Origin: Geobacter metallireducens GS-15
Lineage (GTDB): Bacteria > Desulfobacterota > Desulfuromonadia > Geobacterales > Geobacteraceae
Length of the DNA stretch: 32,000 bases
Assembly: GCF_000012925.1 (NCBI RefSeq)
Contig: NC_007517.1
Coordinates: 2,250,001 to 2,282,000 of the forward strand
Reading direction: 5' to 3'
The first letter of the stretch is position 1; each line of letters opens with the position of its first letter. Shown here piece after piece: positions 626 through 32,000 of this stretch. The notes beneath the pieces were generated by a model. The model had not been told where the DNA came from. It did no database searches and saw only the letters and a list, made by a program, of their open reading frames with translations. The translations under genes were made by a program, and so were the position numbers.

Positions 626-685
626 AAAATCAAATGCCCAAGTTCGATTAGCCCGAGTTAGCTGTACACAAACAGAATAAACTAA

Positions 686-1348: not shown

Positions 1349-1372
1349 TAAAACTCCTAATATCGGTCAGCG

Positions 1373-2824: not shown

Positions 2825-2829
2825 GAAAA

Positions 2830-3990: not shown

Positions 3991-4009
3991 GAAGGGGAAT
4001 CCACGAACT

Positions 4010-4921: not shown

Positions 4922-4951
4922 ACTGATCCTTTACAGCGATGGTGTTCAATC

Positions 4952-5404: not shown

Positions 5405-5484
5405 TTTCAACCTCCTGTTGATTCTCTTTGTAATATCAAATGGTTACCCAAAAGCACCGATTTCACCGTCCTACCTTCCGAGCA

Positions 5485-6651
5485 TCACAAGCACTGACTG
5501 AATTCCGCGAGCATTATTCCCAGACTCTCCCTAGAAAGATCCTGGTGAACAGGAAAACCAAATACATTTGTTTTCAGATAAACAGCATCAGGGTATTTAT
5601 CCCACGGGACTGCCGGATGAAAATCCCCCCACCAATCATGTCCGGACAATCCCTGATCTTTAAGTTGACGGTAAACTCTGTCCCTATCCTGGACGATCAC
5701 CGGGAAAAACAATGGGCTAACACCTTCGGGAAGAGAAAGTATCGGCAACGTTATGCGATCATTCATTATCAACTTGTCGAGCAGGTGGAGAAAGTTCGCT
5801 CTGCGGCGCTCCTTGATTCGTTGAAATTCAGTTCCACGAAGTATTGCGGATGAAACGTCCGACATCATCCAATGCTTCACCTGCTCATTGAAATGATTAC
5901 CGCTTGGATAAACCAGATAATCTCCATGGTCCTGAAAAATTTTGTGAATTCCCCTAAGCCCCATTCGAGCCAGGCGTGCAAAGGCGAAATTGCACGAATA
6001 GGCCATCTGATTCACACGTTTTGGTTCAGTAGTTGATCCCCGCGCAAGCATTTCCGAAACAACGAAGTAGGTGGCGAATAGATTTGGGCGAACCCTTCGA
6101 GGCCGATTGACAGAGAAGGCCGGGTTATTGATCAACAGACAGCCGCCATCGGGAATGGGAACGGTCTTTCGAATGCTGAAGATTGCCATGTCACCCGTTA
6201 AGCCGAGAGGAACGTCGCCATCGTTACTAAGCAACGCATGGGCGCAGTCTTCGATAAGAACAATCCCCCGCTCGGTGCATATCCGGTGAATGTTCTCCAG
6301 GCGCTGAGGAAACCCGAGGTAGTGGATGACAAAGATCGCTGCCGTCTCCGGCCGGATGCGAGCCAAAAGATCATCTTCATCTATTGAAAAATCGGTCTTG
6401 ACCCTATACCAGTCAATCTTCGCGCCCGAACGCACAGCCGGTTCAACTTCAACCCAGCAGTTGTAGGAGGGCATGAGAATCGACTGCTGAGGAGAAAGCT
6501 TCAGAGCATCGAGTGCTGCCGCAAGGGCATACCGAGCAGAGTAAAAATACTCACATCTGCCGGTATTAAAGGGAAACACCTCCTGCCGGGGACGATCGGC
6601 TCGGGAGGTCAGAATTTCCCATGTCAGTGATGGCTTGCTGCTAACCTTCAT
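5485..6651 (-). CDS. DegT/DnrJ/EryC1/StrS-family PLP-dependent aminotransferase
   Basis: The core EDCAHALLSNDGDVPLGLTGDMAIFSIRKTVPIPDGG matches the family pattern (AHA...GD..FSxxxxK..xxGG, with Lys as the PLP site). The track start at 6678 is a TTG. The ATG at 6651 is preceded by GAGGAAGAAGG and is preferred. Confidence 0.8.
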   Translation of the reverse strand: MKVSSKPSLTWEILTSRADRPRQEVFPFNTGRCEYFYSARYALAAALDALKLSPQQSILMPSYNCWVEVEPAVRSGAKIDWYRVKTDFSIDEDDLLARIRPETAAIFVIHYLGFPQRLENIHRICTERGIVLIEDCAHALLSNDGDVPLGLTGDMAIFSIRKTVPIPDGGCLLINNPAFSVNRPRRVRPNLFATYFVVSEMLARGSTTEPKRVNQMAYSCNFAFARLARMGLRGIHKIFQDHGDYLVYPSGNHFNEQVKHWMMSDVSSAILRGTEFQRIKERRRANFLHLLDKLIMNDRITLPILSLPEGVSPLFFPVIVQDRDRVYRQLKDQGLSGHDWWGDFHPAVPWDKYPDAVYLKTNVFGFPVHQDLSRESLGIMLAEFSQCL

Positions 6652-7750
6652 GCCCTTCTTCCTCAAGCCGTTTGCCAAATCGTTTCACAATCGGGTTGAC
6701 TTTTGTGTAGGCAAAATGGGCCAAAACGCCCTTGATGGTTTTGTTAAACAGATAAAAATTGGTGTAATTCCCCTTAATTTCTGCCCAATCAGACTTGTAG
6801 GTTTCGTTGCCGGGACCAAAATCCACCATTTTGACCTGTTCGCTATCCATCAAATACTGCAATACATGATTAAGGAGAACCAGTCCCACGCTGTACCGCT
6901 TATAACGTGAGTCATAGGCAGTCTTCAGAAAAAAACATTTGTCTCCGCACAAAATGCGATACTGCGCCGCTATGGGTTGTCCATCAAGATACATCAAGGC
7001 CAGCAGCAAGTTGTTGCCACGCGCTGCAATCTCTCCAAGATCGACATGAAAACCGGGCCCCAGGTGCTCGGCCTGTTTCCAGCTTTTCTCATAAACGTCG
7101 CTGTAATCCGCCATATACGCGGCAGCTTCATGGCCTTTAACTATCTTAATTTCTATAGAGCCCAGTTCCCCGAGCTTTTTATTCCTTCGTTTAATCTCCT
7201 GCCGCACACCCTTGTCCCTGCATTTCAGATACCCTTCATAGGCCAAACCTTCACAGGGGAGTCGCCAGTTGCAGTCAACAGCTTTATGGAGCCAATTGCA
7301 TCCCGAATAATGCAGCAGATCCATAGCCTGGGAATACAGTTCCCCATCGTAAAGCGGACCAATCTGGGCGATATCCCAGCCGGGTACCTTTCTTAACGCC
7401 TGGAATAGAAACTCACCAAGCCTTTGCTTGCTCTCTGATCTGTCAATTATCAAAGATCTCAGGGGCGAATAGGCATTGCCTATGCTCTCCAGTTTCCTTA
7501 CCGGTATTCTCTTGATTCTCTCTACTTTGCCGAGGAAAGGCGCAATGGCGACCAGTCTGTCACCTTTATAAACGGTTACAATGCACAGTCTGCTACCTTT
7601 GAGGAAATAGTTCAGCCACAGGCCATACCACCCATGACTCAAGAAAAAATATTCGTCGTGGTACTGTGAAGCCAGCGCATCCCATTCTTGTTGGATCCTG
7701 CTGAATCCGCTTAAATTGTCGATGATAACTACAGAATATTCTGCTGACAC
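6641..7750 (-). CDS. CelD/FemAB-like GNAT-fold acyltransferase (PEP-CTERM-locus FemAB-related type), paralogue 1
   Basis: 369 aa and colinear with the next gene. Shared blocks include LVAIAPF/LVAVAPF, SIGNAYSPLR/SIGGNRSPLK, VYEKSWKQAE/VRAKSWKAAE, DGQPIAAQ/DGTPIAVQ and YKSDW/YKEEW. The GTG start at 7750 has an AGGA RBS. Confidence 0.65.
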   Translation of the reverse strand: MSAEYSVVIIDNLSGFSRIQQEWDALASQYHDEYFFLSHGWYGLWLNYFLKGSRLCIVTVYKGDRLVAIAPFLGKVERIKRIPVRKLESIGNAYSPLRSLIIDRSESKQRLGEFLFQALRKVPGWDIAQIGPLYDGELYSQAMDLLHYSGCNWLHKAVDCNWRLPCEGLAYEGYLKCRDKGVRQEIKRRNKKLGELGSIEIKIVKGHEAAAYMADYSDVYEKSWKQAEHLGPGFHVDLGEIAARGNNLLLALMYLDGQPIAAQYRILCGDKCFFLKTAYDSRYKRYSVGLVLLNHVLQYLMDSEQVKMVDFGPGNETYKSDWAEIKGNYTNFYLFNKTIKGVLAHFAYTKVNPIVKRFGKRLEEEGHEG

Positions 7751-7757
7751 GTCAGTC

Positions 7758-8870
7758 CTATTTATGAGCGTTTGTGGAATCGGTATTTTTCTTCACCAGT
7801 GGCAGAATCTTCTTCATAAGAATAGAGGCTGTGCATCCAAGCACTGATTTATTGTAAGCTTCTATGCCGATTCTGTTTCTGAGCGACGGGGTCCATTCTT
7901 CCTTGTACGGTTCATCCCCCCTCAGGTAATCCACATACGCGACCCGCTCGTTGTCGATTGCATGCTGAAACATCATAGAGGTCAGAATCTTGCCAGGGCT
8001 GTGCTTCTTGTACTCCTCATCATAGAGAACGTCATAAATATAGGCTCTGCCATTCGCAACGATCCACTTCTGGACAGCAATAGGAGTCCCGTCATAGGAA
8101 AGAATCCCAAGCCTGAGCCACCCCTTGCCCGCTGCTACATGCATGAGTTCACGGTTGAATTCCCGATCCTTCTCGGCAGCTTTCCAACTCTTTGCCCGAA
8201 CGGCGTCGTACACATCGAGGCACTGATCAAGCGAAGCAGCGTCCGTTATGATCTGAAAAACAAGGGAGCCGTTCTTTTCCAGACGGCGACGGCAGTAATT
8301 GATATCCTTGCGGGTGCTCTGGGGCAGCCTCTCGAAGAAGCCGTCAAAGGAGGCATCCGCCACATCGCAGTAGCGGTTGGCGCAACTGATGTAGGAGCGG
8401 AACGAGAGCCCCTGGCGCTCAATGAGAGTCTCAATGCTGTTGCCATCATTGGATCCGGCTACCGGTTCAAGCTCAAGAATATCCCAGTTTTTGAAGGTCG
8501 TGCGGAGGTACTCCAACACCAATGTGGTAACCTCTCGCTGCATATTTTCGTCTGCGTCCCCGAATACGATCCCTTTCAGGGGCGATCGGTTGCCGCCGAT
8601 GGACGAGAGAATGCGGGCCGGGACAACCCCTTTGTAACGCTCAGAGCGGACCGTGAACGGAGCCACCGCCACCAGACTGCCGCCACTCCTCACCATGAGG
8701 ATATGAAGCGCACGTGTCTCACCGTGGCGGAGGCAAAGATCGAACCACTCCCAGCAGAACCAGGGGGTGTAATAGCCGTTGATATCGGCAAGCTGATTCC
8801 ACTCGTCTAGGATTGCCTGAAAAGCCTCCCGATCAGTTATGACGGCTATGTCAAAACAACCACGGTTCAT
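7758..8870 (-). CDS. CelD/FemAB-like GNAT-fold acyltransferase, paralogue 2
   Basis: 370 aa, with the same blocks listed for paralogue 1. Its start overlaps the upstream stop as ATGA (8867-8870), and a GGGGAG RBS is present. Confidence 0.65.
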   Translation of the reverse strand: MNRGCFDIAVITDREAFQAILDEWNQLADINGYYTPWFCWEWFDLCLRHGETRALHILMVRSGGSLVAVAPFTVRSERYKGVVPARILSSIGGNRSPLKGIVFGDADENMQREVTTLVLEYLRTTFKNWDILELEPVAGSNDGNSIETLIERQGLSFRSYISCANRYCDVADASFDGFFERLPQSTRKDINYCRRRLEKNGSLVFQIITDAASLDQCLDVYDAVRAKSWKAAEKDREFNRELMHVAAGKGWLRLGILSYDGTPIAVQKWIVANGRAYIYDVLYDEEYKKHSPGKILTSMMFQHAIDNERVAYVDYLRGDEPYKEEWTPSLRNRIGIEAYNKSVLGCTASILMKKILPLVKKNTDSTNAHK

Positions 8871-10126
8871 CGACTCCCCATTTCCCCCATCAATCGGCAG
8901 GGACGCACGTCCTTCCCCTCAACCAAAAGCTCGCACGGCTCCCCATGCCCCAAAAAGAGCAGCGGACTCGCACTGTACCCATAGCTCCCCGAATTCAGGA
9001 ACCCGACCAGATCCCCCACCTCCGGCACCTCCACCGTCACCCCCTTCCCCATCAGATCAAGGGGGGTGCAGAGGGGACCGACAAGGGTGCAGATTATCCG
9101 TTCCGCACCGGGCCGCGAAAGGTTGCGGACCAAGTAGTTCTTCCTAATGGTCATGCCGAGATTGCCCGATGCCGACAGGTGGTGGTTCATCCCCCCGTCG
9201 AGAACATAGAACTGCTCGCCCCGCGACAGCTTTTCACTCACCACCCGAGTTACGTAGATTCCGGCCTCGGCAACCAGGAACCGTCCCAGCTCCAGGAGGA
9301 TGCGGGGTTTTGTCCCCGTGGCCTCGCGGTACCGGTCGAACTCGGCCCTGAAAAGGAGGGCCAGCTTGTCCAGATCGAGCCCCGGATGCTCTTCGTAGTA
9401 GGAGACCCCGAGCCCACCGCCGATGTTGATGACCCGGCACTCCATGCCGTAGTCGGTGGTAATCCGGGCCGCTATGGCCAGGGTGTTGGCGAGATTCTGT
9501 GCCAGGGCTTCCTCGTTCAGGCACTGGGTGCCGGCGTAGATGTGGATTCCCTTGAAGTCAAACGCATCGGCATTGGCCTTGATGAAGTCCAGGGCCGATG
9601 GCAGTTCTTCCTCGTCGATACCGAACTGGGAAGCCTTACCACCCATCTTCACCGCGAAGTCCCTAATGAGGAGCTGGGGGTTGACCCGCACCAAAATGTA
9701 AGCCCGATGCGAACCGGCCCGAACCAGATCGCGCAGGTCATTAAGCTCGCGCAGCGATTCGACGCTGATGCAGCCAACCCCGGCCTCCAGGGAGCGGCGC
9801 AGCTCGTCGCGGGTTTTGCCCGGACCGGCGAAGCTGATGCACCCCGCGTCATAGCCGGTCTCCAGGGCGCGCTCCAGCTCGCCGGCCGAGGCAATGTCGA
9901 GGCCGTCCACTTCGCCCCGCATGGCTGCCAGGAGTTCCCGGTTCGGGTTGGCCTTGACGGCGTAGAGGAGTTCGAGGCTGTCGCCGAAGGCCTTGCGGAC
10001 GGCAGCGCACTTCTCCTTCACCTTGTCCAGGTCGTAGAGGTAGAAGGGGGTGCCATAGCGCGCGGCAAGCTCCTCGAAGCAGATATTCCGCAGGCAGGTT
10101 TTGCCGTTTTGTTCCGTCAGGATCAT
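8867..10126 (-). CDS. PLP-dependent decarboxylase, Orn/DAP/Arg decarboxylase family 2 (exosortase A system-associated type)
   Basis: Motifs are the PLP-lysine motif YAVKANPN, GGGLGV, GPLCTPLD and SGSYGYS, in a DAP-decarboxylase-like layout. The track start at 10150 is a GTG. The ATG at 10126 overlaps the ligase stop (TGATG) behind AGGGAAG and is preferred. Confidence 0.85.
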   Translation of the reverse strand: MILTEQNGKTCLRNICFEELAARYGTPFYLYDLDKVKEKCAAVRKAFGDSLELLYAVKANPNRELLAAMRGEVDGLDIASAGELERALETGYDAGCISFAGPGKTRDELRRSLEAGVGCISVESLRELNDLRDLVRAGSHRAYILVRVNPQLLIRDFAVKMGGKASQFGIDEEELPSALDFIKANADAFDFKGIHIYAGTQCLNEEALAQNLANTLAIAARITTDYGMECRVINIGGGLGVSYYEEHPGLDLDKLALLFRAEFDRYREATGTKPRILLELGRFLVAEAGIYVTRVVSEKLSRGEQFYVLDGGMNHHLSASGNLGMTIRKNYLVRNLSRPGAERIICTLVGPLCTPLDLMGKGVTVEVPEVGDLVGFLNSGSYGYSASPLLFLGHGEPCELLVEGKDVRPCRLMGEMGSR

Positions 10127-11697
10127 CAATTCTTCCCTGCCGCCAGCCACTCTTTCTTGATCCCCGAGCGGTCAATCTTGCCGTTGGCGGTTTTCCTGAA
10201 CGCCTTCTCGAAGTGAATCTCCTGGGGGACCATGTAGGTGGGGAGCCGCTTGCGGCACTCCTTGAGCAGCTCCTTCTTGTGTTCCTCCTCGTGGTCAGTC
10301 TCCATGACCGCCACGATGATCTGGTCGCCCGACTCCACTTCCTTGCCGAAGACAACCACGTTGCTCACGCCAGGCAAGCCGATGAGCACCTCTTCAACCT
10401 CGGTGGGGCTCACCCGGTAGCCGGAGGTCTTGATCATCTCGTCGCGGCGGGAGACGTAGTAGAGGAAGCCGTCCTCGTCCTTCTTCACGATGTCGCCGGA
10501 GTAGACCACGGTCTCGTGCAGGTGGGGCTGATCGTGGAAACGGGGATTCTTCCGGAAGATCACCTTGGTCTTTTCCGGGTCGTTCCAGTAGCCGTGGGTG
10601 ATGAGGGCGCCACGGTGGACCAGCTCCCCCTCTTCGCCCGGGGCACACTCTTCGCCCTTGGCGTTCACCACCAGGATCTCCACGTTGGGAATCCCCTTGC
10701 CAATGGAGTCGGGCCGGCGGTCAAGCTCCTCGGGGGGAAGGAAGGTGGAGCGGAATGCTTCGGTGAGCCCGTACATGAGGAAGAGCCGGGAGTTGGAGAA
10801 AAACTCGCGGATGCGGGAGACCATGATCCGGGGCACCTTGCCGCCGCTGTTGGTGAGGTAGCGCAGGTGGGGGAAGTCGGAGTTGTAGGTGAGCTTGATC
10901 TTGTCGTTGAAGAGCTTGGCCCAGATAGGGGGCATGCCGGCAAAGCCGGTGATCTCTTCCTTGACGAGGAGGTCCAGGAGATCCTTGACCATGACGAACT
11001 GGTGCAGCACCAGGGTCGCGCCGTGGAGGACGGCGGTGGTGGCCTGGTTGAGGCCGTAGTCGAAGTTGAAGGGAAGGACGCTGATAATCCGGTCCTTCTC
11101 GGTGATCTCCAGGTAGGTGCTGACGATCTCGGCCCCGTCCACCACGGTGCTGTGGGGCACCACCACCCCCTTGGGCATGCCGGTGGAACCGGAGGTGTAG
11201 ATGAGGCAGGCGATGTCCGGGGAGAAGCCGGGAACGGGGGTGTAATCAGCCGGGAGCGTTGCCTTGAGCTTGGGCCAGCAGGGGTGCCCTTCCCGGTCGT
11301 GCTCCGGCTCGTCCACATGGATGAGCTTTCCGGGCGCGGCCAGGTGGTTCTTGCGGAACAGCTCGCTGGTGGTGATCATGAGCTGGATCTGGCAATCGTT
11401 GACGATGTATTCGATCTGCTCTTTCTTGAGGATGGGGTTGATGAAGACAAAGACCGCCCCGGCCAGGGTGGCGCCGAACATGGCGGTGAGCTGCTCGATG
11501 GACTTGTCGAGGTAGATGCCGACCCGCTCGCCCCGCTTGATGCCGAGCCCGCGGATAAGCCCCTTCATCTTGAGCGCTTCCTCGTGCAGTTGGGCATAGG
11601 TGATGGTCCGGTCGTGGTGCTTGACAGCAACCTTATCGGGCAACCGCGCGGCGGTGTCTTCCAGCAGATGGCCTAGCAGATACGGTCTCAGACTCAT
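10126..11697 (-). CDS. AMP-forming acyl-CoA/acyl-ACP ligase (adenylate-forming superfamily, exosortase A-associated type)
   Basis: Motifs are the AMP-binding signature IYTSGSTGMPKGV, YGLTE, SGDIVKKDEDGFLYYVSRRDEMIKTSGYRVSPTEVE and the C-terminal KTANGKIDR. The start overlaps the ACP stop as ATGA. Confidence 0.9.
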   Translation of the reverse strand: MSLRPYLLGHLLEDTAARLPDKVAVKHHDRTITYAQLHEEALKMKGLIRGLGIKRGERVGIYLDKSIEQLTAMFGATLAGAVFVFINPILKKEQIEYIVNDCQIQLMITTSELFRKNHLAAPGKLIHVDEPEHDREGHPCWPKLKATLPADYTPVPGFSPDIACLIYTSGSTGMPKGVVVPHSTVVDGAEIVSTYLEITEKDRIISVLPFNFDYGLNQATTAVLHGATLVLHQFVMVKDLLDLLVKEEITGFAGMPPIWAKLFNDKIKLTYNSDFPHLRYLTNSGGKVPRIMVSRIREFFSNSRLFLMYGLTEAFRSTFLPPEELDRRPDSIGKGIPNVEILVVNAKGEECAPGEEGELVHRGALITHGYWNDPEKTKVIFRKNPRFHDQPHLHETVVYSGDIVKKDEDGFLYYVSRRDEMIKTSGYRVSPTEVEEVLIGLPGVSNVVVFGKEVESGDQIIVAVMETDHEEEHKKELLKECRKRLPTYMVPQEIHFEKAFRKTANGKIDRSGIKKEWLAAGKN

Positions 11698-11930
11698 GCT
11701 TCCCCCCTCTTGGATGTGATCAGGCTCGAAATGGCCGTTACGGTGCCAAGCTTTTCGACGGTCATGTCATCAACGTCGAATTCGACGTCAAAGGTCTGCT
11801 GAATGAAGGTGATGAGCTCCATGACCCCCATGGAGTCGATGATCCCCTGTTCGATGAGGGGGGTGCCCGGAGTCACGTCGGCATCGAGGGTGTCTTTGAA
11901 ATAGGTGATGAGTTGGGTTTCGATGGTCAT
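11694..11930 (-). CDS. Acyl carrier protein
   Basis: 78 aa and acidic. GIIDSMGVMELI contains the DSx phosphopantetheine-attachment serine. It sits immediately upstream of, and is coupled to, the ligase gene. Confidence 0.85.
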   Translation of the reverse strand: MTIETQLITYFKDTLDADVTPGTPLIEQGIIDSMGVMELITFIQQTFDVEFDVDDMTVEKLGTVTAISSLITSKRGEA

Positions 11931-11972
11931 GCTCAGTACCTCTGGTTTTGGAATGACTACTTTTGTCTATCA

Positions 11973-12069
11973 ACCCTCTCCCCCAGGGAGAGGGTGCCCG
12001 AAGGGCGGGTGAGGGAAACTCTGGCCACCGTGCCCCCTCACCCCTACCCCTCTCCCTCAGGGAGAGGGG
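11973..12069. repeat. REP-like compound palindromic element (three hairpins)
   Basis: Hairpin 1 is ACCCTCTCCC-CCA-GGGAGAGGGT (11973-11995). Hairpin 2 is GGGTGAGGG...CCCTCACCC (12007-12043). Hairpin 3 is CCCCTCTCCC-TCA-GGGAGAGGGG (12047-12069). The element fills the only sizeable gap (146 nt) in the gene train. No T-run follows on either strand. Confidence 0.7.
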
Positions 12070-12076
12070 AAACTTT

Positions 12077-13060
12077 CTAAAACATATCAAAATCACCGCA
12101 ATGGACCACCCACCCTTTATCGGGCAGGTTGTCCGTGAATGCGTGGGTAAGAAAATCGATATCCCACCGCTTGAGAAACACCATCTTCCGCAGAAGTGGC
12201 TCATACCAGGCGTCGGGCGTGGCATAGATCACGAGCCGCTGAATCCCCTGCTCGCTGGCCAACCGCGCGAGGTGCGATATGGCCTTGCGGAAAAGTTCCG
12301 GGTCGTCCCCCTCCACAATGATGTCGAGGATCTTCCGCTCGCTGCCGGTATCGTACGTGACGCAGTAGCCGCAAACCCGGTCGCCTGCCATGATCTGATA
12401 GCCGGTGGTCTGGTAGTGGAGGTTACCGAGGAACTTCCAGTTGAGGAACGCGGCGGTCTTATGGAAGTAGGCGTGCTTCGACGCGCGGCGATACCGTTCG
12501 AGCACCGGGTCGAGCTGCTCGGGGGAGAAACGGGACACCAGGTTAAGACTCAGGTCGGCATGGCGTCTGCCGGGTTTGACAAAAGAAAGCACGCTTTCGG
12601 CATTGAGCCCCGAGGCATTGGTGATCTTCTTGTACACCCCCACCTTGGCGGTGATCTTCCAGTTGAAGTACTTCAGGTAATACTTCTTGGACTCCTCGTT
12701 GGCATAGGCAAAGAGGAGATCGACTTTTTGCTCAAGCTCATCGGTGGTGAGACGGCAGAGCTTGCCGAACACTCCGTGAAAGAGCCGGTAATCGGGGTCC
12801 ACCAGGGTATTGACCCCCATGGCACTGCGGTAGAGGGTACCTGCACATGCCACATCCTGGGGGATGTAGTTCTCCTGCCCCACGAGGCGTTCGCCGTCGT
12901 AGCAGAGCCCCAGGTACGACTCTCCTGCAGGGTTGCCTGCATAGAAGGAGTCGAAGAAGCGCTCGTTGCGGTGGCCGTTGATCCGCTCCCAGAAGGAGTG
13001 GATGTTCTGGCGGTGATCCGCGTAATTGGTCGTGAAGGTATAGTCAAGCGTACGTTTCAT
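12077..13060 (-). CDS. Hypothetical protein, probably a two-lobed GNAT-fold acyltransferase
   Basis: 327 aa with no TM segments. The call rests only on general resemblance to GNAT/FemX-like proteins and on context next to ACP and ligase. The start overlaps the upstream stop as ATGA (13057-13060). Confidence 0.45.
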   Translation of the reverse strand: MKRTLDYTFTTNYADHRQNIHSFWERINGHRNERFFDSFYAGNPAGESYLGLCYDGERLVGQENYIPQDVACAGTLYRSAMGVNTLVDPDYRLFHGVFGKLCRLTTDELEQKVDLLFAYANEESKKYYLKYFNWKITAKVGVYKKITNASGLNAESVLSFVKPGRRHADLSLNLVSRFSPEQLDPVLERYRRASKHAYFHKTAAFLNWKFLGNLHYQTTGYQIMAGDRVCGYCVTYDTGSERKILDIIVEGDDPELFRKAISHLARLASEQGIQRLVIYATPDAWYEPLLRKMVFLKRWDIDFLTHAFTDNLPDKGWVVHCGDFDMF

Positions 13061-13884
13061 GGATTGCTGATATTCCCTGTTCCGGAATCGTCGATGCGGT
13101 AGCAGAACCGGTAGAGCTTGCGGTAAGTGCCGTACCCCACCAGGCTCTTGACGAAGTTCTTGGCCTTCTTGTTGATGATCATGGGGAGGAGCACCGACCG
13201 GTCTCCCGCCACGATCCGGCCGAAGGTGGCGAGGTCATAGGACCCCGAAACGTTGATCCTCCCCAGCACTGCCGGGGTTCCCCCCCTGTGCCGGATCACC
13301 GGCTCTGAGGTGCTTACGGAGCGGTAGCCGGCCTGAGCGGCCATCTCTATGACGCGGCGGTCGAAGACCCCCTGGGGCATGCTGATGTGGTTCACGGCAC
13401 GGCCGATCCGGTCCTCAATGGCCTTTTTCGAATCCTCCAGCTCGGCCCGGATCTCCCCGTCGGTGAGAAGCCCCAGGGGGCGGTGACTGACCGTATGGGA
13501 CTGGATCGAAATGCCGGCATCGGCCAACTCCCGAACCTGCTCCCACGTCATGTAGCCGGGTTGCCCCATGAAGCAGGAAACCACGAAGATGGTGGCGGTG
13601 AGCCCCAGTCCTGTGAGAATGGGCCAGGCAGCGCTGTGGTTGTTGTCCCACCCGTCGTCGAAGGTGATGACGACCCCGTTCCGCTCGCCGTTTCCAGTCA
13701 GGAGATCATCCAGGGAGAGGGACCGAAAACCGCCGGCAGTCAGTTGCTCCATCTGACTGCGGAACGCATCGGCCGTCACGCAGTAGGCTGGGTTGGTCTT
13801 TCGCACCGCCTTGTCCTGCTCGCTGGTGGCGGTTACCTCATGGTACATGAGGACCGGGGCTGTCATTGCCGGAATCGTGTCCAT
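13057..13884 (-). CDS. Polysaccharide deacetylase (NodB/CE4; PEP-CTERM-locus subfamily type)
   Basis: Motifs are PVLMYHEV, ITFDDGWDNN, QSHTVSHRPL and HISMPQG. Confidence 0.85.
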   Translation of the reverse strand: MDTIPAMTAPVLMYHEVTATSEQDKAVRKTNPAYCVTADAFRSQMEQLTAGGFRSLSLDDLLTGNGERNGVVITFDDGWDNNHSAAWPILTGLGLTATIFVVSCFMGQPGYMTWEQVRELADAGISIQSHTVSHRPLGLLTDGEIRAELEDSKKAIEDRIGRAVNHISMPQGVFDRRVIEMAAQAGYRSVSTSEPVIRHRGGTPAVLGRINVSGSYDLATFGRIVAGDRSVLLPMIINKKAKNFVKSLVGYGTYRKLYRFCYRIDDSGTGNISNP

Positions 13885-13891
13885 CGTCGCC

Positions 13892-15862
13892 CTACCCCAG
13901 ATACTCGTTCAGGCTCGGCGGCGTGACGCCGAGGGGATCGTTGGCCAGGTAGCAGTGATGCCAGATGTCGAAGGTGAGCAGGAACAGGATCCGGTTCGCC
14001 TTCGAGTTGAGGAAGTTGGGCCAGCCGACCGCCCCCTGCTGGAACGACTCGTATTTCTCGAACAGGGTACGGAGATAATCGGTGCGGAAATACTCTCCCA
14101 TGACTTCGGACCGGAGCAGCTTCTCGTAGATCCGTTTCCTCAGGGCCGGGTCGTTGAGGAAGATCATGACCGGCACGAATCCCCCCTGCTTGGGCTTGGA
14201 CATGATTTCCGGGGGGAGGATCCCCTCCATGGCCTTGCGGTGCAGGAGCTTGCTCTTGAATCTCCCCCGGAGGTGGTCCACAAGCCCCCCGCCCCGTTTG
14301 ACGGGCATGGGGAGAGACACCAGGAAGTCGGCCACATCGGCGTCCAGGAACGACTCACGGAGCACCAGGCCAAGCATGTCGGCCATGCGGCCGGACTTGA
14401 CCATGACATTCTCGTTGACGTAGTGCCGCATGTCCTGCTCGATCTGGGTTTCCAGGTAAACCTGGGCAAAGGATTCCGGGCTGCCCGCGGGCTCGCCGAA
14501 GATACGCGGCACCCGGGCCAGGTTGCCGTTTCTGTAAAGTTGGCTCAGTTCGTGGCCGTCGTAACCGTAGAAGTACCAGTCGTTCAGATCTGCTGCCCGA
14601 TTCCAGAAGAGCCGCAACTGGAAGCCGAGGTTGTCGCGATCATAGAACAGGGGACCCCGGAGCAAGCTTGAGACGGTGCGGGCCGGACCGATCATGCCGC
14701 TCTTGCGGAACAGGTAGTGGACGGCAGCAGGTCGGCCGCCGGCGAAACCGCCGGTGCCGTACATCTGGTCGGCCCCTTCGCCGCCGATGACCGCCTGGAC
14801 GTGGCCGCTGGCCGATTTGAGCCCCATGTAGGTGAGGAAGAGGCCGAACTCGAAATAGGGCTCTTCCAGGTGCCACACCAGGGAAGGGAGATCGTCGATC
14901 TCGCGACCGGTGATGGTGTACTCATGGTGATCGGTGCCGAAGTGCTTTGCCACGATCCGGGCGAAGGGGCGCTCGTCGAAACGGGGGTCTTCAAAGCCGA
15001 TGGCGAAGGTCTTGACCGGCGTACTGGAGCAGGAGGCAGCCAGGGCCGCGTTGGCGCTGGAATCGAGCCCGCCGCTCAACATGACGCCGGTGCTGCCGTC
15101 GCTCCCCATGCGCCTGGCGATTGCACCGCGCAGTAGATCACGGTAGGCGGGAATCGCTTCTTCCATGGTCATGCCTGGGCGGGTCACGGCATCAAACTGC
15201 CAGTAGGGGGCAACCTCCGCTTTGCCATCACGGAAAGTGAGCATGTGCCCCGGCGGCAGCTTGTTGATCCCTTTGAGGATCGACCAGGGAGAGGTGATGT
15301 AGGCGTATTTCAGGAACAGGTTGAGGCCTTCGTGGTCCAGTTCCCGCCTTACCCCCGGACAGGCCAGGAGGGTTTTGAGATGGGTGGCGAAGATAAGCCG
15401 TCCGTCGGCCACGGTCCAGTAGAGCTGGTGGGCGAGGCCGAAGCGGTCGTTCATGAGGCGGAAGGTCTTTTCCCGTTCGTCGAGGATGCCGATGGTGAAG
15501 AGGCCGTTGATGGAGCGGGCGAAGGAGGCGCCGCTGCGCCGGTACATGCGCAGGACGAGGTCAAGGTCGCCGCAGCAGGGACGCCCCGAGGGTGGATGCT
15601 GCGAGAGGAGCTCCCGGTAGTTGTTGACCTCGCCGTGGATAACCGCCGCAAGACCGGCGTCGGGATCGTGCTCTATGCGGGTCTGGCGGCTCGGGGAGTC
15701 GGCGGCGCTCCGCCGCATGCCGATGAGATGGCCGAGCCCCGTGGAGACGGAGAACTCACCACTGCCACTCATCTTCAGGTAGGCCGCCATGGCATTACCC
15801 AGCACATCCCTGTCGGCAATGGCGTTCCTGAAATCGATTATCCCGAAAATTCCCTGGCTCAT
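13892..15862 (-). CDS. Asparagine synthase-family amidotransferase (exosortase A-associated type) lacking the N-terminal Cys nucleophile
   Basis: 656 aa. The PP-loop is VMLSGGLDSSANAA. The N-terminal domain is Ntn-glutaminase-like, but the protein begins MSQGIFGIIDF rather than MCG. An AAGGA RBS lies 9 nt upstream of the ATG at 15862. Confidence 0.85.
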   Translation of the reverse strand: MSQGIFGIIDFRNAIADRDVLGNAMAAYLKMSGSGEFSVSTGLGHLIGMRRSAADSPSRQTRIEHDPDAGLAAVIHGEVNNYRELLSQHPPSGRPCCGDLDLVLRMYRRSGASFARSINGLFTIGILDEREKTFRLMNDRFGLAHQLYWTVADGRLIFATHLKTLLACPGVRRELDHEGLNLFLKYAYITSPWSILKGINKLPPGHMLTFRDGKAEVAPYWQFDAVTRPGMTMEEAIPAYRDLLRGAIARRMGSDGSTGVMLSGGLDSSANAALAASCSSTPVKTFAIGFEDPRFDERPFARIVAKHFGTDHHEYTITGREIDDLPSLVWHLEEPYFEFGLFLTYMGLKSASGHVQAVIGGEGADQMYGTGGFAGGRPAAVHYLFRKSGMIGPARTVSSLLRGPLFYDRDNLGFQLRLFWNRAADLNDWYFYGYDGHELSQLYRNGNLARVPRIFGEPAGSPESFAQVYLETQIEQDMRHYVNENVMVKSGRMADMLGLVLRESFLDADVADFLVSLPMPVKRGGGLVDHLRGRFKSKLLHRKAMEGILPPEIMSKPKQGGFVPVMIFLNDPALRKRIYEKLLRSEVMGEYFRTDYLRTLFEKYESFQQGAVGWPNFLNSKANRILFLLTFDIWHHCYLANDPLGVTPPSLNEYLG

Positions 15863-15887
15863 TGGTGATGATCCTTCATGGCCGCGC

Positions 15888-16700
15888 TCAGATCAGCCTC
15901 TTGCCGTTCTGTTTGAATTCCCGCACGTGGTCTTTGGTCGGAAAGGAAAAATAGGACCCCTCGGACGCAGGATTCTCGCGGTACGTGGCGGTGCCGTCCC
16001 GCAGCGAGGCGATGGCCCGGGCCATGACGTGGGCGCCCAGGATCTTGGTCCGCCGGATGAGGGAGTCGAGGGTCTCGCCGGGGAGGATATCGACCATCTC
16101 CTGGCGGAGGATACGCCCGTCGTCAAGCTTCTCGTTCATCTCGTGGATCGTGATCCCCACCTGCCGCTCGTTGTGGTACATCTGCCAGAAATTGGGGAGC
16201 ATGCCCCGGTAGCGGGGAAGCGCGCCGTTATGGATGTTGATGCAGCCAAGCCGAGGCAGTTCCACCAGTTCCTTCTTGAAGATGACCGGGGCGGCAACGG
16301 AGGCGATGAGGTCCAGGTCCATCTCCCGGAGCGACGCGAGGAATTCAGGGGAGTTGACCCGGTTGGTACTGAAGACCGGCATTCCATGGTGGGCACAGAG
16401 TTGGCCAACGCTGTAGAAGTTCCCCCCGGCCAGGGCCGGTATCCTGGCCTTCACCTTGTAAGACGCATAGCGGGTGCCGACCCGAACGAAATCCAGGGGG
16501 CCGTAGAAGTCGTACATCTGCCGGGCCAGCTGCACAGGGCCCTTCTTCCCCATGGCAGCGGCGATTACGACCCCCTTGATGGACGCAAGATCGTTGAAAG
16601 ACTTGAAAAACTCCTCGAAGAAGAGCCTGACGTAGAAAGGGTCGTCCTGGGTGATGAACAGGACGTTCAGTTTTTTGCTTTTCGTGTCGCTCATGGGCAT
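15888..16700 (-). CDS. Formyltransferase-family protein (Fmt/ArnA N-domain-like)
   Basis: 270 aa. CINIHNGALPRYRGMLPNFWQ matches the formyl_trans_N HxSLLPxxRG-type motif, with DDGRIL downstream. There is no tRNA-binding C-terminal domain. Confidence 0.8.
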   Translation of the reverse strand: MPMSDTKSKKLNVLFITQDDPFYVRLFFEEFFKSFNDLASIKGVVIAAAMGKKGPVQLARQMYDFYGPLDFVRVGTRYASYKVKARIPALAGGNFYSVGQLCAHHGMPVFSTNRVNSPEFLASLREMDLDLIASVAAPVIFKKELVELPRLGCINIHNGALPRYRGMLPNFWQMYHNERQVGITIHEMNEKLDDGRILRQEMVDILPGETLDSLIRRTKILGAHVMARAIASLRDGTATYRENPASEGSYFSFPTKDHVREFKQNGKRLI

Positions 16701-27373: not shown

Positions 27374-28735
27374 TCAAAAAACCTCCATTTCACCAAGTCG
27401 CTTGTAGAGAGCCTTTCGAGAAATTCCCAGCATTTTGGCCGCATGCGACTTATTCCCACCGCTCTCTTCCAATGCCGCCAGTATTGCCGCCTCTTCGAGT
27501 TCACGAAGGGTACGCACCTGCTGACGGCTTTCAACCCGCACCACATAGGGCTTCAGCTCTTCGGGAAGCTCCTTGGTTGTGATTCGGTCCTTCTTCGCAA
27601 GAACTACGGCGCGTTCAATAATGTTGCCCAACTGGCGTATATTTCCGGGCCAGTCATAGTTCAGAAAGACCTGCATTACTTCGTCGTCGAAACGGAGCAC
27701 CTTTCCTTCTCGTGCGCCGTACTCCCTGACAAGTTCGGCGGCAAGGAGAGGAATGTCTTCCCGGCGGTCGCGAAGGGGAGGCACCTGCACCTGAACCACG
27801 TTGAGCCGATAGAAGAGGTCCTCCCGAAAGTTCCCGGCGGTTATCTCCGAGGGTATATTCCTGTTTGTAGATGAGATTAGCCGGAAATTGACCTTGATCT
27901 TCTTGTTGCTGCCAAGTCGTTCTATTTCCTTTTCCTGAAGGACTCTGAGCAATTTTGCCTGAAGCGGCATTTCCAGTTCACCGATCTCATCGAGAAAGAT
28001 CGTTCCTTCCGCCGCTTCTTCAAATCGGCCGATGCGACGGGAGAAAGCCCCGCTGAAAGCCCCCTTCTCGTACCCGAAGAGTTCCGACTCAATCAGCTCG
28101 CGAGGCATGGCCGCGCAATTTACCGCAACGAACGGTTTATCCCTTCGCACGCTTCCGTAGTGAAGGGAGCGGGCAATGAGTTCCTTGCCGGTTCCGGTCT
28201 CGCCACAGATGAGCACGCTGCTCATGGAATCCTTGACGGCCTCGACAGTTTCAAAGATACGGAGCATTTCCGGAGTGGCGCCAACAATGCGTGCCGGCGT
28301 TCCGCCAGAGACCCTCTTGCGCAGAGTTTCCAGTTCGCGCTTAAGGCTGCGTTGTTCCACTGCCCGAGCCAGGATTCCCTTGAGCTTAACGTAATCAGGG
28401 GGTTTGATGAAATAATAGAATGCTCCGCGGGTGATGGCATGCACGGCTGAATCCACGGAACCATACGCCGTCAGGAAAATAATCGGTATATCGGGATAGT
28501 GCTCCGCCATAAAATCCATCAACTGTATGCCGTCCTTGCCAGGCATCTTCATGTCGGTAATGACAGTGTCTATATCCTCTTTACTCAAGGCTTGCTCCGC
28601 CTCGGCGGCATCGCCGGCCTTGAATACAGAATAACCTTCCTCCCGCAGGATTGCAGCGAGCACCTTCAGGGCATTCGGCTCATCATCGACAATGAGCACC
28701 TTCCCGTGCGCTTTACCCTGCATGAGTTTCTCCAT
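27374..28735 (-). CDS. prsR: Sigma-54-dependent response regulator (PEP-CTERM-box regulator PrsR type, NtrC/AtoC family)
   Basis: The receiver domain shows VLIVDDEPN...ITDMKMPGKDG. The AAA+ domain has Walker A GETGTGKE, the sigma-54 contact loop GAFSGA, and FLDEIGE. The C-terminal Fis-type HTH is HAAKMLGISRKALYKRL. An alternative ATG at 28723 has a better GGAGAA RBS. Confidence 0.9.
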   Translation of the reverse strand: MEKLMQGKAHGKVLIVDDEPNALKVLAAILREEGYSVFKAGDAAEAEQALSKEDIDTVITDMKMPGKDGIQLMDFMAEHYPDIPIIFLTAYGSVDSAVHAITRGAFYYFIKPPDYVKLKGILARAVEQRSLKRELETLRKRVSGGTPARIVGATPEMLRIFETVEAVKDSMSSVLICGETGTGKELIARSLHYGSVRRDKPFVAVNCAAMPRELIESELFGYEKGAFSGAFSRRIGRFEEAAEGTIFLDEIGELEMPLQAKLLRVLQEKEIERLGSNKKIKVNFRLISSTNRNIPSEITAGNFREDLFYRLNVVQVQVPPLRDRREDIPLLAAELVREYGAREGKVLRFDDEVMQVFLNYDWPGNIRQLGNIIERAVVLAKKDRITTKELPEELKPYVVRVESRQQVRTLRELEEAAILAALEESGGNKSHAAKMLGISRKALYKRLGEMEVF

Positions 28736-29747
28736 GAGAACTCTCTACAGGAAGGCTGAGACGCACGGTCGCACCGTTTCCCTTGGAGTTTATTATTTCA
28801 AGACTTCCACCGTGATACTGAATGATCTCCCGAGAGATAAAAAGACCGAACCCCCGCCCCTTGTCCCGAGTGTTGCCACGTGGTGGTAAAAGCAGATTGT
28901 GGAAAGCCCCCTCAGGTATCCCCGGCCCGGAATCTGAGATATCGAGTGTCACCTGTCTCCTGTCCGCCATAGTGTCCAAACGGGTTCTGAACGTAATGGT
29001 GCCGCCGCTCCCCATAGCCTCAATGGCATTGTTGACAATGTTGAGTATTGCACTCTCCAGATGGAAAGCATCAAACTCGAGGAACGGAACATCCCCGTAA
29101 TCGCAGACAAACCGGATATCGCGTTCCTGTGCCTGAAGCGATGTAATCTTCAATACTTTTTCAAGAAGCACATGGAGGTCGCTGCGCGATTTTTCCATCT
29201 CCAGGAGCGACGTACTGAGGAACTTGGTTATGAATCCATCGAGCTTTGCAATCTCCTCGTCGATGATGTCCGCAAATTCCACAAATGTTTCATCGGAGCC
29301 ATAGCGGTGCTTGAGATATACTACTGCCCCCTTTATCGCGTTGAGCGGATTTCGAACGCCATGGGCAAGAGTGGCGGACACCTTGCCAATATCGATAAGC
29401 GTACTGGCCCCTTTCAACTCCAAGGCTCTTGAACAGGTTTCGGAAGCGCACACGGAAACCCGAACCGCCCCCACAGCGCTCTCCTGATTCAGGACGGGCT
29501 CTAAACGTATATCAGCCAAAGTCCTTCCCAAAATACAAATAACCGAATAATCTCGCAGCAATAGAGGAATGCCGCTTTGGACGACCTCCGCCACCGCATC
29601 GCGGTCCTGATACAATACTCGCGGGAACACTTCATAATAAGGCTTTCCGGCGAGAAGGGCTGCAGGAGTTCCGATTATTTGTTCCGCAGCCTCGTCACAG
29701 GAGGAAAGAGTTAGATTCGGTGCTACGTCGAATGAATAAAAAACCAT
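28713..29747 (-). CDS. Soluble PAS-domain sensor histidine kinase (occupies the PrsK position)
   Basis: The H-box is SATLAHGVRNPLNAIKG, the N-box is ILNIVNNAIEAM, G1 is DISDSGPGIP and G2 is GRGFGLFISREI. The N-terminal approx. 110 aa is PAS-like and has no TM segments. The 3' end overlaps prsR by 23 nt. Confidence 0.85.
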   Translation of the reverse strand: MVFYSFDVAPNLTLSSCDEAAEQIIGTPAALLAGKPYYEVFPRVLYQDRDAVAEVVQSGIPLLLRDYSVICILGRTLADIRLEPVLNQESAVGAVRVSVCASETCSRALELKGASTLIDIGKVSATLAHGVRNPLNAIKGAVVYLKHRYGSDETFVEFADIIDEEIAKLDGFITKFLSTSLLEMEKSRSDLHVLLEKVLKITSLQAQERDIRFVCDYGDVPFLEFDAFHLESAILNIVNNAIEAMGSGGTITFRTRLDTMADRRQVTLDISDSGPGIPEGAFHNLLLPPRGNTRDKGRGFGLFISREIIQYHGGSLEIINSKGNGATVRLSLPVESSHGETHAG

Positions 29748-29800: not shown

Positions 29801-29894
29801 CCTCGCCTTGAAAAGACACTATTTGACTTTACTAGGAGCAGCGGTTAAGGTTACTCAAAATTACCACAGTTCATTAACCCAAGTAAACCGCACA

Positions 29895-30581
29895 ATGCAT
29901 ACGAGAACTCTTGCCCATATACTCCCCTTCGCCGTTTTCATGTCATTCATCGCCATCGAAGGGTTATTGCCTTGGCTCGATAAAGACGGCGTCATTGCCC
30001 TCCAACCCGAGAGCCCACTCTACCTCTACCCCCTCAAGACAATGGTTGTGGGCTCATTGCTGCTCTATTTCAGAAAACATTACCATGAAATCAGTATTAA
30101 ACAAATCGTACGCCCGTCCATAGCCATATCCGCTATACTTGCAGGCATCATTGTTTTCATGCTCTGGATACAAATGGATTGGCTTTTGCCCTTCCAAAAA
30201 CCGGCTCCAGGATACAATCCCAACCTCATACCCAACGATATCCACAGAATAGTATTGATCGCATTTCGGCTGGCAGGCGCCTCCATTGTAGTGCCGGTCA
30301 TGGAGGAGATCTTCTGGAGGTCCTACATCGCACGGATGATCATAAATCAGGATTTTGAATCGGTACCGGTGGGGACATTCTCGTGGGCATCATTTCTGGG
30401 GACGGTTCTGCTGTTTGGGCTTGAGCACCAGTTCATCATCGCCGGCTTGATGGCCGGCGCCATCTACCATGCTCTTCTATGCAGAACCAAAAGCATAGCT
30501 GCGTGTATTACCGCCCACAGCGTGACCAATCTGCTCTTGGGAATCTTTGTCCTCAAGTCCGGAGCCTGGCGCTTCTGGTAG
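29895..30581 (+). CDS. CPBP-family intramembrane glutamic endopeptidase (CAAX protease-related, PEP-CTERM-associated type)
   Basis: The protein is multi-TM. Motifs are VMEEIFWRSY (EExxxR), FGLEHQ (FxxxH) and HSVTNLLLG (HxxxN). The track ORF begins at a TTG at 29808. The first ATG at 29895 gives MHTRTLAHILPFAVFMSF. The start is uncertain, since neither codon has a clear RBS. Confidence 0.8.
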   Translation: MHTRTLAHILPFAVFMSFIAIEGLLPWLDKDGVIALQPESPLYLYPLKTMVVGSLLLYFRKHYHEISIKQIVRPSIAISAILAGIIVFMLWIQMDWLLPFQKPAPGYNPNLIPNDIHRIVLIAFRLAGASIVVPVMEEIFWRSYIARMIINQDFESVPVGTFSWASFLGTVLLFGLEHQFIIAGLMAGAIYHALLCRTKSIAACITAHSVTNLLLGIFVLKSGAWRFW

Positions 30582-30641
30582 CCACCCTTACTCCGACAGA
30601 AGCTATCCGGACAGAACAAATTTTCCTCAGGGATATTTTCG

Positions 30642-30673
30642 TTGATTGAATCGAACAGAATGTGGTATATAAT
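30642..30673 (+). promoter_or_regulatory. Possible sigma-70-type promoter for the riboswitch-NAS transcript
   Basis: TTGATT (30642-30647) is followed 18 nt later by TGgTATATAAT (30663-30673), an extended -10-like element. This is a pattern match only. Confidence 0.3.
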
Positions 30674-30694
30674 AAAATCGAATACATAGATAGA

Positions 30695-30770
30695 CGACAA
30701 TACTCAACCATCCGTGAGGATGGGGCGGAAAGCCTATTGGGTCTCACCGAGACAGCCGGGTTGCCGAAAT
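30695..30770 (+). ncRNA. GEMM-I-like cyclic-dinucleotide riboswitch aptamer (c-di-GMP-I class; ligand not assignable)
   Basis: CAACCAUCC-GUGA-GGAUGG is a 6-bp helix with a GNRA loop (30708-30723). It is followed by GGCGGAAAGCC. A second hairpin is GUCUC-ACC-GAGAC (30741-30753). The element closes with CAGCCGGGUUGCCGAA. This order and these sequence blocks mirror the Vc2 pattern as I recall it: CAAACC-helix-GAAA-helix-GGGACGCAAAGCC...GCGGGGUUACCGA. Confidence 0.6.
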
Positions 30771-30804
30771 ATCTGACCAAAGATATAGGCCCCGGCTTTT
30801 TTTT
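30754..30804 (+). terminator. Intrinsic terminator forming the riboswitch expression platform
   Basis: AGCCGGG-uu-GCC-gaa-AUAUCU-gaccaa-AGAUAU-a-GGC-CCCGGCU gives about 16 bp, followed by T8 (30797-30804). Its 5' arm is the 3' strand of the aptamer. Confidence 0.8.
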
Positions 30805-30860
30805 GTCCATTTTGGGGGCCGCACAAATTCAAGGAAGAACCGTCAAGGAGGACACCAATA

Positions 30861-31673
30861 ATGACAGGAAGACTTTCAAGGCTCTCTCCCGAACCGGGGC
30901 TCGTCGATTACTTCAACCTTCTCTATTCAGTCATACCAGCTGAAACCGATGAACTCGTGAAGGAAACATTTCGTCTCAGGTATCAGGTTTACTGCATCGA
31001 AAACGAGTTTGAACCTCCTTCCGAAACTTCACAGCAAATGGAAACCGACGAATTCGATAAGAACTCGGTGCACTCCATCATTAAATACAACAAAACAGGG
31101 CACTCTATCGGTTCTGTCAGAATGGTTTTGCCGAATGAACGGGATCACACCCGCAGCTTCCCCATCCAGAAGATATGCAGCCACTCGATATTCACCGACA
31201 GAAAACTGTTCTCCCTTTACAGACCTATCGAAATATCACGGTTCTGTCTCTCTAAAGAACTGCGGACGATGGCAAAGCCATGCAAACATATGTGCGTTCA
31301 ACTGACATCCACAAGAGCCCCCTTTTCACCATCCTTGCTTAATCAGCATGGGCCAATACTTGGACTGATCAGAGGGCTTGTCCAGATGAGTAGCGAAAAT
31401 CATGTTACCCATTGGTTCGCCATTATGGAACCGTCACTTATCAGGTTACTGGCTAAGCTCGCGATATATTTCAAACCTGTAGGATCCCTCATCAACTATC
31501 ATGGCATGAGACAACCGTGCTATATAGAACTGTCAGAGTTATTGCGGAGGGTCTTTTCCGAGCAGCCACTGGTGTGGGAGGTATTGACCAACAAGGGGCA
31601 GTTTGACCTGAATCTCACCAACTACAATGAAAGCCTTTCTGGTTCCAATCTGAATAAAATATCACGATACTGA
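30861..31673 (+). CDS. N-acyl amino acid synthase (LuxI/FeeM-like GNAT fold), PEP-CTERM/exosortase system-associated family
   Basis: 270 aa. The N-terminal block ETFRLRYQVYCIENEFEP, plus SVRMVLPN and EISRFCLSKELR, is typical of this family. An AAGGAGG RBS lies 9 nt upstream of the ATG. Confidence 0.75.
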   Translation: MTGRLSRLSPEPGLVDYFNLLYSVIPAETDELVKETFRLRYQVYCIENEFEPPSETSQQMETDEFDKNSVHSIIKYNKTGHSIGSVRMVLPNERDHTRSFPIQKICSHSIFTDRKLFSLYRPIEISRFCLSKELRTMAKPCKHMCVQLTSTRAPFSPSLLNQHGPILGLIRGLVQMSSENHVTHWFAIMEPSLIRLLAKLAIYFKPVGSLINYHGMRQPCYIELSELLRRVFSEQPLVWEVLTNKGQFDLNLTNYNESLSGSNLNKISRY

Positions 31674-31731
31674 CACAAACCGGCTCTAATTTTTATTCGA
31701 GAACATCAACATCATGGCATAACCGGATTTA

Positions 31732-32000
31732 TCACAGCATGTTGCTTTCAATGAATTTAAAGCAATCAGGGTCTTTTCTCTCCATTCCCAGCCTTAGTTC
31801 CTGCAAATTACCAAGATACGGTGTCCTGAGCCCATGATAATCGACCTCTGGACCAACCGGATGATAAATCATTCCAACCCGCTTCAAAAGTATGTATAAT
31901 CCCCTCTTCATCGCAACATACCAATGAGATAACCCCATATTCACACTGCTCAACAAAAGAAATTTATAAAACTCATGTACATAATTGCACTTCCGCAGAT
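31732..32000 (-). CDS. Second N-acyl amino acid synthase paralogue (N-terminus beyond window edge)
   Basis: The reading frame stays open to position 32000 upstream of the track ORF 31732..31956. GLSHWYVAMKRGLYILLKRVGMIYHPVGPEVDYHGLRTPYLGNLQEL aligns with VTHWFAIMEPSLIRLLAKLAIYFKPVGSLINYHGMRQPCYIELSEL of the plus-strand gene. Confidence 0.7.
   Translation of the reverse strand, partial: LRKCNYVHEFYKFLLLSSVNMGLSHWYVAMKRGLYILLKRVGMIYHPVGPEVDYHGLRTPYLGNLQELRLGMERKDPDCFKFIESNML

Follow-up and report, generated by a model that had tools for sequence, protein, structure and literature searches.

The GEMM-I riboswitch family (RF01051) has Vc2 of Vibrio cholerae as its archetype. In Vc2, one c-di-GMP guanine is read by G20 on its Hoogsteen face (PMC6140456; PMC5888326), and the ligand is further contacted by the intercalating A47 and by C92 (PMC5888326, PMC6140456). 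[quoted passage not shown] The cGAMP-sensing GEMM-Ib subclass is defined by an A in place of G20 (PMC6140456). This A, which is A14 in Gs1761, makes a pair with the ligand adenine in cGAMP riboswitches (PMC6140456).

The closest described systems are the Geobacter GEMM-Ib elements Gs1761 (pgcA, PDB 4YAZ) and Gm0970 (pilM), which follow an ON logic and in which an overlapping terminator captures the ligand-pairing C. For example, the pilM element of G. metallireducens responds to cGAMP as an ON switch; its RNA forms either the aptamer or the terminator, and it no longer binds the ligand when the terminator sequesters C75 (PMC9262584). A total of 13 G. metallireducens loci are under cGAMP riboswitches (PMC9262584), and Gmet1914 is among the cGAMP synthases of the species (PMC12285248).

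Here we describe Gm2037, an element of the same host species that precedes the gene Gmet_2037. Riboswitch control of this gene was proposed in the 2009 genome paper, according to which the sequence before Gmet_2037 overlaps predicted c-di-GMP riboswitches (PMC2700814). In Table S2 of a 2025 study, Gm2037 is given as cGAMP on the basis of Nelson 2015 and Kellenberger 2015 (PMC12285248); elements that are bispecific, undetermined or untested have categories of their own there. That this copy is selective for cGAMP is known second-hand, from this secondary table (PMC12285248). In the secondary literature covered here we found no description of individual biochemical work on Gm2037. From the element and its class to the listed ligand and the link with the gene, all is already known from the 2009 paper, the two 2015 PNAS papers and the 2025 table, a description that the first-pass annotation of this DNA had overlooked. 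What is new here is modest: a map of the two folds, corrected pairing partners, and a linkage of the riboswitch with the N-acyl amino acid synthase (NAS) gene that is Geobacterales-wide among the loci examined.

Based on our data, Gm2037 is very probably a GEMM-Ib (3',3'-cGAMP) riboswitch with an overlapping terminator, acting as a transcriptional ON switch for Gmet_2037. The evidence obtained here is family membership, the A at the G20 position (A20), two mutually exclusive folds and conservation together with the gene. The cGAMP selectivity and ON behaviour of the sister elements are taken from the literature and would extend to this copy by analogy.

The window, that is the whole stretch of DNA analysed, comprises 32,000 nt of G. 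metallireducens GS-15 (NC_007517.1, positions 2,250,001 to 2,282,000); all coordinates below are positions in it, on the plus strand unless stated otherwise. Gmet_2037 occupies 30861-31673. By protein comparison its product is 100% identical to ABB32266.1 / WP_004512914.1 of G. metallireducens, and a TIGR03694 match of 295.8 bits (cutoff 111.95) bears out the N-acyl amino acid synthase that had been proposed downstream of the element. By family and by its location in an XrtA/PEP-CTERM locus, the protein is a PEP-CTERM/exosortase-associated acyltransferase; some sources name its homologues 'N-acyl amino acid synthase of PEP-CTERM/exosortase system'. Directly upstream, at 29808-30581, Gmet_2036 (WP_004512915.1) encodes a PEP-CTERM-associated CAAX-type protease (TIGR03008, 331 bits with a cutoff of 81), so that the regulated gene is Gmet_2037; Gmet_2036 is context only and lies outside the switch. 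The two genes are separated by an intergenic gap of 279 nt (30582-30860), from the Gmet_2036 stop at 30581 to the NAS start at 30861. A Shine-Dalgarno motif, AAGGAGG, is read from the sequence at 30846-30852, 8 nt before the ATG and outside the switch.

According to the first-pass annotation, the 279-nt gap contains a GNRA-capped helix, a junction, a second hairpin and a closing block; all of them are present, in that order. The assignment of these blocks to a GEMM-I-class aptamer is confirmed by RF01051 (c-di-GMP-I/GEMM-I), which matches 30692-30768 with 43.3 bits compared to a gathering score of 35 (Rfam 15). The match covers model positions 1-87 of 87, has an E value of 1.9e-05 for the 32-kb window and is the sole Rfam match in these 32 kb at gathering thresholds. 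The contrasting family RF01786 (c-di-GMP-II) gave no match at E <= 10 in 30560-30900.

The complete GEMM-I/GEMM-Ib aptamer, including P1, spans 30688-30774. Compared to the interval 30695-30805 proposed earlier, the functional element is slightly larger, with P1 beginning at 30688. P1 pairs AGAUA (30688-92) with UAUCU (30770-74) and CG (30695-96) with CG (30765-66). The GNRA-capped arm (30703-30728) is closed by the pairs C30703-G30728 and U30704.G30727 and carries the helix CCAUCC-GUGA-GGAUGG at 30708-30723, in which 30708-13 pairs with 30718-23 around the loop GUGA (30714-17). The junction GGCGGAAAGCC is read from the sequence at 30724-30734, and the closing block CAGCCGGGUUGCCGAA at 30753-30768. 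The P3 arm (30731-30762) pairs AGCC (30731-34) with GGUU (30759-62) and UGG (30738-40) with CCG (30756-58), has an AG bulge at 30754-55 in the model alignment and ends in the second hairpin, GUCUC-ACC-GAGAC (30741-30753; GUCUC 30741-45 with GAGAC 30749-53). With 12 pairs and a 3-nt loop, P3 is short. The two-arm architecture of the family is present, with a GNRA-capped hairpin, an AG-bulged hairpin, a (G/A)CG(C/G)AAAG junction and closure by P1.

The unconstrained minimum free energy (MFE) structure of the aptamer alone is limited to the GNRA-capped hairpin and a portion of P3, with a z score of -1.5 that is not significant. Such a weak MFE is expected because the fold depends on ligand and tertiary contacts, and the model-derived structure is used instead throughout the aptamer analysis.

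Two further groups of matches in the leader were rejected. In a permissive scan of 30560-30900, the clan sibling RF03167 (c-di-GMP-I-GGC variant) reached 44.4 bits, marginally above the RF01051 score but far short of its own gathering score of 59; the RF03167 model includes P1 pairs, and the defining changes of the variant lie elsewhere in the binding site. The minus-strand matches (suhB/mmgR with E 0.33, and others) were put down to the terminator read backwards or to noise.

The bases that set ligand specificity can be located in the RF01051 alignment. A30702, which is unpaired and directly precedes the first junction pair on the 5' side, falls on model position 11 and is equivalent to Vc2 G20 and Gs1761 A14. 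C30764, within GCCGAA, is equivalent to Vc2 C92 and Gs1761 C75, and A30729, adjoining the GNRA-capped arm, corresponds to the intercalating A47 of Vc2. Both A30729 and C30764 are invariant in the 11 sequences of the alignment described below. The earlier opinion that the ligand cannot be called missed A30702 at the G20 position; with this base and the cGAMP entry in Table S2 (PMC12285248), the ligand can be assigned far better than had been supposed. A20 favours selectivity without ensuring it, as both cGAMP and c-di-GMP are bound by Vc2 G20A and by Cbe 1-2 via a protonated adenine (PMC6140456). Judged from its sequence alone, the element would be cGAMP-binding, possibly bispecific.

The earlier annotation had also listed two differences from the Vc2 type, UCAA versus GCAAA and GCGG versus ACGC, and had suggested that AGCC in the 3' strand may make up for the second. 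Both differences concern one set of pairs, seen from either strand: C30703-G30728 and U30704.G30727 stand in for the G-C and C-G pairs of Vc2, and in all 11 sequences it is CU at 30703-04 that pairs with GG at 30727-28, which excludes the compensation by AGCC. C30726 we take to be the equivalent of Vc2 C44, and C44/G83-type bases are presumably common to Vc2 and the G. metallireducens element.

Compared to Gs1761 and Gm0970, there is no difference in kind. Gm2037 has the same fold, the A at the G20 position, the ligand-pairing C and, as set out below, an overlapping terminator that captures this C; it controls an NAS gene rather than cytochrome or pilus genes, and its P3 is short. With Vc2 it shares the family, the three-helix junction, the GNRA arm, the A47-type A and the C92-type C. 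It differs from Vc2 in having A for G20 and C-G and U.G closing pairs for G-C and C-G, in its listed ligand, which is cGAMP and not c-di-GMP, and in its predicted action at a terminator, as an ON switch, while Vc2 has been described as acting on translation (PMC9262584). The element has every tested defining feature of the GEMM-I family and of the GEMM-Ib subclass; its ligand preference comes from the literature.

Direct folding revealed an intrinsic terminator at 30754-30804 that re-uses the 3' strand of the aptamer. In this structure, AGCCGGG (30754-60) pairs with CCCGGCU (30791-97), GCC (30763-65) with GGC (30788-90) and AUAUCU (30769-74) with AGAUAU (30781-86), followed by T8 at 30797-30804. 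The hairpin of about 16 bp with T8 that had been noted at first sight is borne out: the stretch 30754-30797 forms 16 bp with a dG of -22.9 kcal/mol and a z score of -4.9, and none of 200 shuffled sequences was as stable. A rule-based terminator scan of 30400-32000 found nothing; it missed this hairpin because the internal loops fall outside its loop and stem rules.

The aptamer and the terminator compete for the same RNA. For the RNA 30686-30806, the terminator fold together with two local hairpins is computed at -38.5 kcal/mol, compared to -21.6 kcal/mol for the model-derived secondary structure of the aptamer. A total of 11 nt (30756-60, 30765 and 30770-74) are paired in both folds. The terminator fold also pairs the ligand-pairing C30764 with G30789, and the downstream AGAUAU (30781-86) rivals the 5' AGAUA for the UAUCU strand of P1. 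Since the terminator fold is lower in energy, termination at the U-run would be the default state. The two structures are mutually exclusive in these models, from which a transcriptional ON switch is predicted; the ON logic put forward in the first-pass annotation is in this way supported.

For the promoter and for the behaviour of the Gm2037 copy in the cell, we infer the following course. Transcription probably starts just downstream of a promoter-like site, TTGAAT-16 nt-TATAAT at 30646-30673, about 7-10 nt before P1. This site is a consensus match only (10/12), from which its function is inferred, and several orthologous leaders have comparable upstream boxes of the TTGA(A/T)T...TATA type. 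The nascent RNA would then fold the GNRA-capped arm and P3. With cGAMP present, the ligand adenine would pair with A30702 and the ligand guanine with C30764, and P1 would close (30688-96 with 30765-74). Closure of P1, with P3 held in place as well, would keep the 3' strand 30756-30774 in the aptamer, so that the terminator could not nucleate and transcription would read through into Gmet_2037. Without ligand, 30781-30797 would invade by pairing with 30754-60, 30763-65 (including C30764) and 30769-74, and the resulting 16-bp hairpin with U8 would lead to termination.

Next, we looked at the conservation of the element upstream of NAS genes. Scanning genomes with 16 aligned NAS homologues as the query gave at least 80 loci, and their leader regions were then searched with Rfam at gathering thresholds. 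G. metallireducens itself and G. grbiciae are absent from the 80 loci listed, and the copy of strain RCH3 was obtained separately. Among the matches listed, all 10 loci from Geobacter, Geobacteraceae, Geobacterales or Desulfuromonadales have an RF01051 match upstream of the NAS gene, so that the element passes the conservation check named in the first-pass annotation. These 10 matches score 38.7-52.3 bits and lie on the coding strand, roughly 100-300 nt before the gene, while the identity of the NAS proteins ranges from 39 to 79%. None of the 70 loci from other lineages among the matches listed (0/70) has RF01051 upstream of NAS; by annotation, most of these loci come from Alpha- and Gammaproteobacteria, some are from Acidobacteriota and a single one is labelled Mycobacteriaceae. 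TIGR03694 genes elsewhere belong to the same gene family and sit in the same XrtA/PEP-CTERM EPS context, but the riboswitch accompanies them only in the Geobacterales-type lineage, among the matches listed.

The window element and the 10 orthologues from the matches listed were combined in an 11-sequence alignment. A20, the C92 equivalent, the C-G and U.G closing pairs, P1 and the overlapping terminator are found in all 11 sequences. Within P1, GAUA with UAUC is invariant (11/11) and the outermost pair is kept in 6 of the 11. The loop of the capped arm is of the GNRA type throughout (GUGA, GCGA, GUAA or GCAA in the 11 sequences). In each of the 10 orthologous leaders, a terminator with a U-run re-uses the 3' strand of the aptamer, with energies from -19 to -26 kcal/mol. 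Across the alignment, 95.2% of the cells are paired compared to 34-44% with slid partners. Compensatory changes affect three pairs of the GNRA-capped helix (C-G/U-A, A-U/G-C and U-A/C-G); the other helices, including P3, are nearly invariant and hence uninformative, so that a single helix provides all of the covariation in these 11 sequences. Selection clearly acts on the element together with the NAS gene, and only in the Geobacterales-type lineage, among the matches listed.

In the same alignment (columns 40 and 77), the positions 30725 and 30762 covary: they are G/U in 6 and A/C in 5 of the 11 sequences, and in the A/C group the A-U pair of the model becomes A.C. The first directly follows the GNRA-capped helix and the second ends P3. 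The two may be coupled through a tertiary or isosteric relation, or there may simply be two clades. As a tertiary contact, the coupled change could tune ligand selectivity.

Other readings of the element differ in their ligand or in whether it regulates at all. In the cell the aptamer might respond to both cGAMP and c-di-GMP, in which case Gmet_2037 would integrate the two messengers. There is precedent for this, as A20-type aptamers can bind c-di-GMP via the protonated adenine mentioned above: Vc2 G20A binds c-di-GMP at 53 nM and cGAMP at 120 nM, and several natural GEMM-Ib RNAs bind both (PMC6140456). In addition, several genes of the 'cGAMP' regulon are up in a high-c-di-GMP strain, and c-di-GMP binding to GEMM-I is a possible reason (PMC12285248). 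Nonetheless we consider such a dual response of Gm2037 unlikely. Table S2 gives 'cGAMP, c-di-GMP' for Gm0749 but cGAMP alone for Gm2037 (PMC12285248), and according to RNA-seq Gmet2037 is slightly down in the high-c-di-GMP strain (log2FC -0.36, non-significant) (PMC12285248). In a strain reported with more cGAMP, the log2FC of Gmet2037 is +0.43, also non-significant (PMC12285248). These two values are the sole direct expression data that we found for the gene; their direction fits a cGAMP switch but is not evidence for one.

A classical c-di-GMP-selective GEMM-I riboswitch is disfavoured and appears highly improbable, given that G20 is replaced by A in the window copy and in all 10 orthologues, and that Table S2 lists the element as cGAMP-selective (PMC12285248). 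The best family above threshold does bear the name 'c-di-GMP-I', and the 2009 paper tied the conserved sequence to predicted c-di-GMP riboswitches (PMC2700814); however, RF01051 spans both subclasses because cGAMP switches were first annotated as c-di-GMP switches (PMC9262584). Least probable, and hardly to be expected, is a decayed or non-regulatory copy in which the hairpin with T8 attenuates constitutively or terminates the upstream gene, and the likeness to an aptamer has no function. The expression of Gmet2037 is barely altered in the strains with changed cyclic dinucleotide levels, and the gene region is low in G+C and adjoins a transposase gene, which suggests recent acquisition. Against decay, the aptamer, its ligand-contact bases and the terminator are kept in 10 of the 10 listed Geobacterales loci despite a protein identity that falls to about 40%, compensatory changes maintain the GNRA-capped helix, and the model match is full-length and above the curated threshold. 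The reading that we retain for Gm2037 is the cGAMP-responsive ON switch.

As a discovery, this element matters little: its class is known, and the copy itself is catalogued and unremarkable. Its remaining interest is one of context, as it adds a synthase of N-acyl amino acids with a link to the exosortase to the cGAMP regulon. With the riboswitch-NAS link kept in Geobacterales-type genomes and absent elsewhere, among the loci listed, what N-acyl amino acids do in surface behaviour under cGAMP control becomes a defined and testable question. We tentatively suggest, as one possibility, that the riboswitch-NAS pairing is an old, conserved cGAMP output in Geobacterales, with cGAMP-controlled N-acyl amino acid synthesis in a programme of surface attachment; if true, an orphan lipid gains a physiological role. 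In the same genome, Gmet1452 encodes a PEP-CTERM sorting-domain protein and is listed behind the GEMM-I element Gm1452, which is classed as c-di-GMP-selective (Table S2, PMC12285248). Both cyclic dinucleotides may feed into the PEP-CTERM system, c-di-GMP through Gm1452 and cGAMP through Gm2037.

The remainder of the window is an XrtA/PEP-CTERM exopolysaccharide (EPS) locus. Its genes encode PrsT, EpsB_2, a TIGR03013 glycosyltransferase, an export protein, a chain-length determinant and a tyrosine kinase, as well as a TIGR03016 outer-membrane protein, a TIGR03098 ligase and a TIGR03099 decarboxylase. The families represented among the neighbours of Gmet_2037 are TIGR03008, TIGR02917, TIGR03013, TIGR03027, TIGR03007, TIGR03018, TIGR03016, TIGR03098 and TIGR03099.

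The 'prs regulatory genes' that had been placed here hold in part: PrsT is supported (675 bits compared to 312), and the kinase and regulator fall under the PrsK and PrsR cutoffs. These two genes, for a sigma-54 response regulator and a histidine kinase, lie beside PrsT on the minus strand (27374-28735 and 28713-29747). The regulator scores 385 (PrsR cutoff 502.6) and the kinase, which has just 344 aa, 63.9 (PrsK cutoff 300). The pair is NtrC/AtoSC-like and not the canonical PEP-CTERM PrsK/PrsR.

Gmet_2037 is followed, tail to tail, by a second NAS-family gene, Gmet_2038, whose product of 233 aa is 29% identical to that of Gmet_2037. It lies on the minus strand at 31732-32000, where it runs off the end of the window, and a DDE-type transposase gene comes after it. 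The two NAS-family genes are convergent, though the 2009 paper has them 'divergently transcribed' (PMC2700814). A covariance search of the upstream region of Gmet_2038 itself gave no GEMM-like match at E <= 1.

The G+C content varies along the window, from 0.40-0.50 at the glycosyltransferase/flippase end (1-8000) and 0.44 at the NAS end (31001-32000) to 0.58-0.63 in the central exosortase-associated genes (9000-16000). Four sizeable ORFs of the EPS locus, all on the minus strand (686-1348, 6641-7750, 7758-8870 and 12077-13060), have no NCBIfam match at E <= 1e-10. Finally, long ORFs of 420-490 aa run antisense to the genes for the TIGR03099 decarboxylase and the TIGR03098 ligase, in the pairs 8945-10216 (+) and 8867-10150 (-), and 10213-11676 (+) and 10126-11697 (-). 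These antisense ORFs are most likely shadow ORFs of the high-G+C region.
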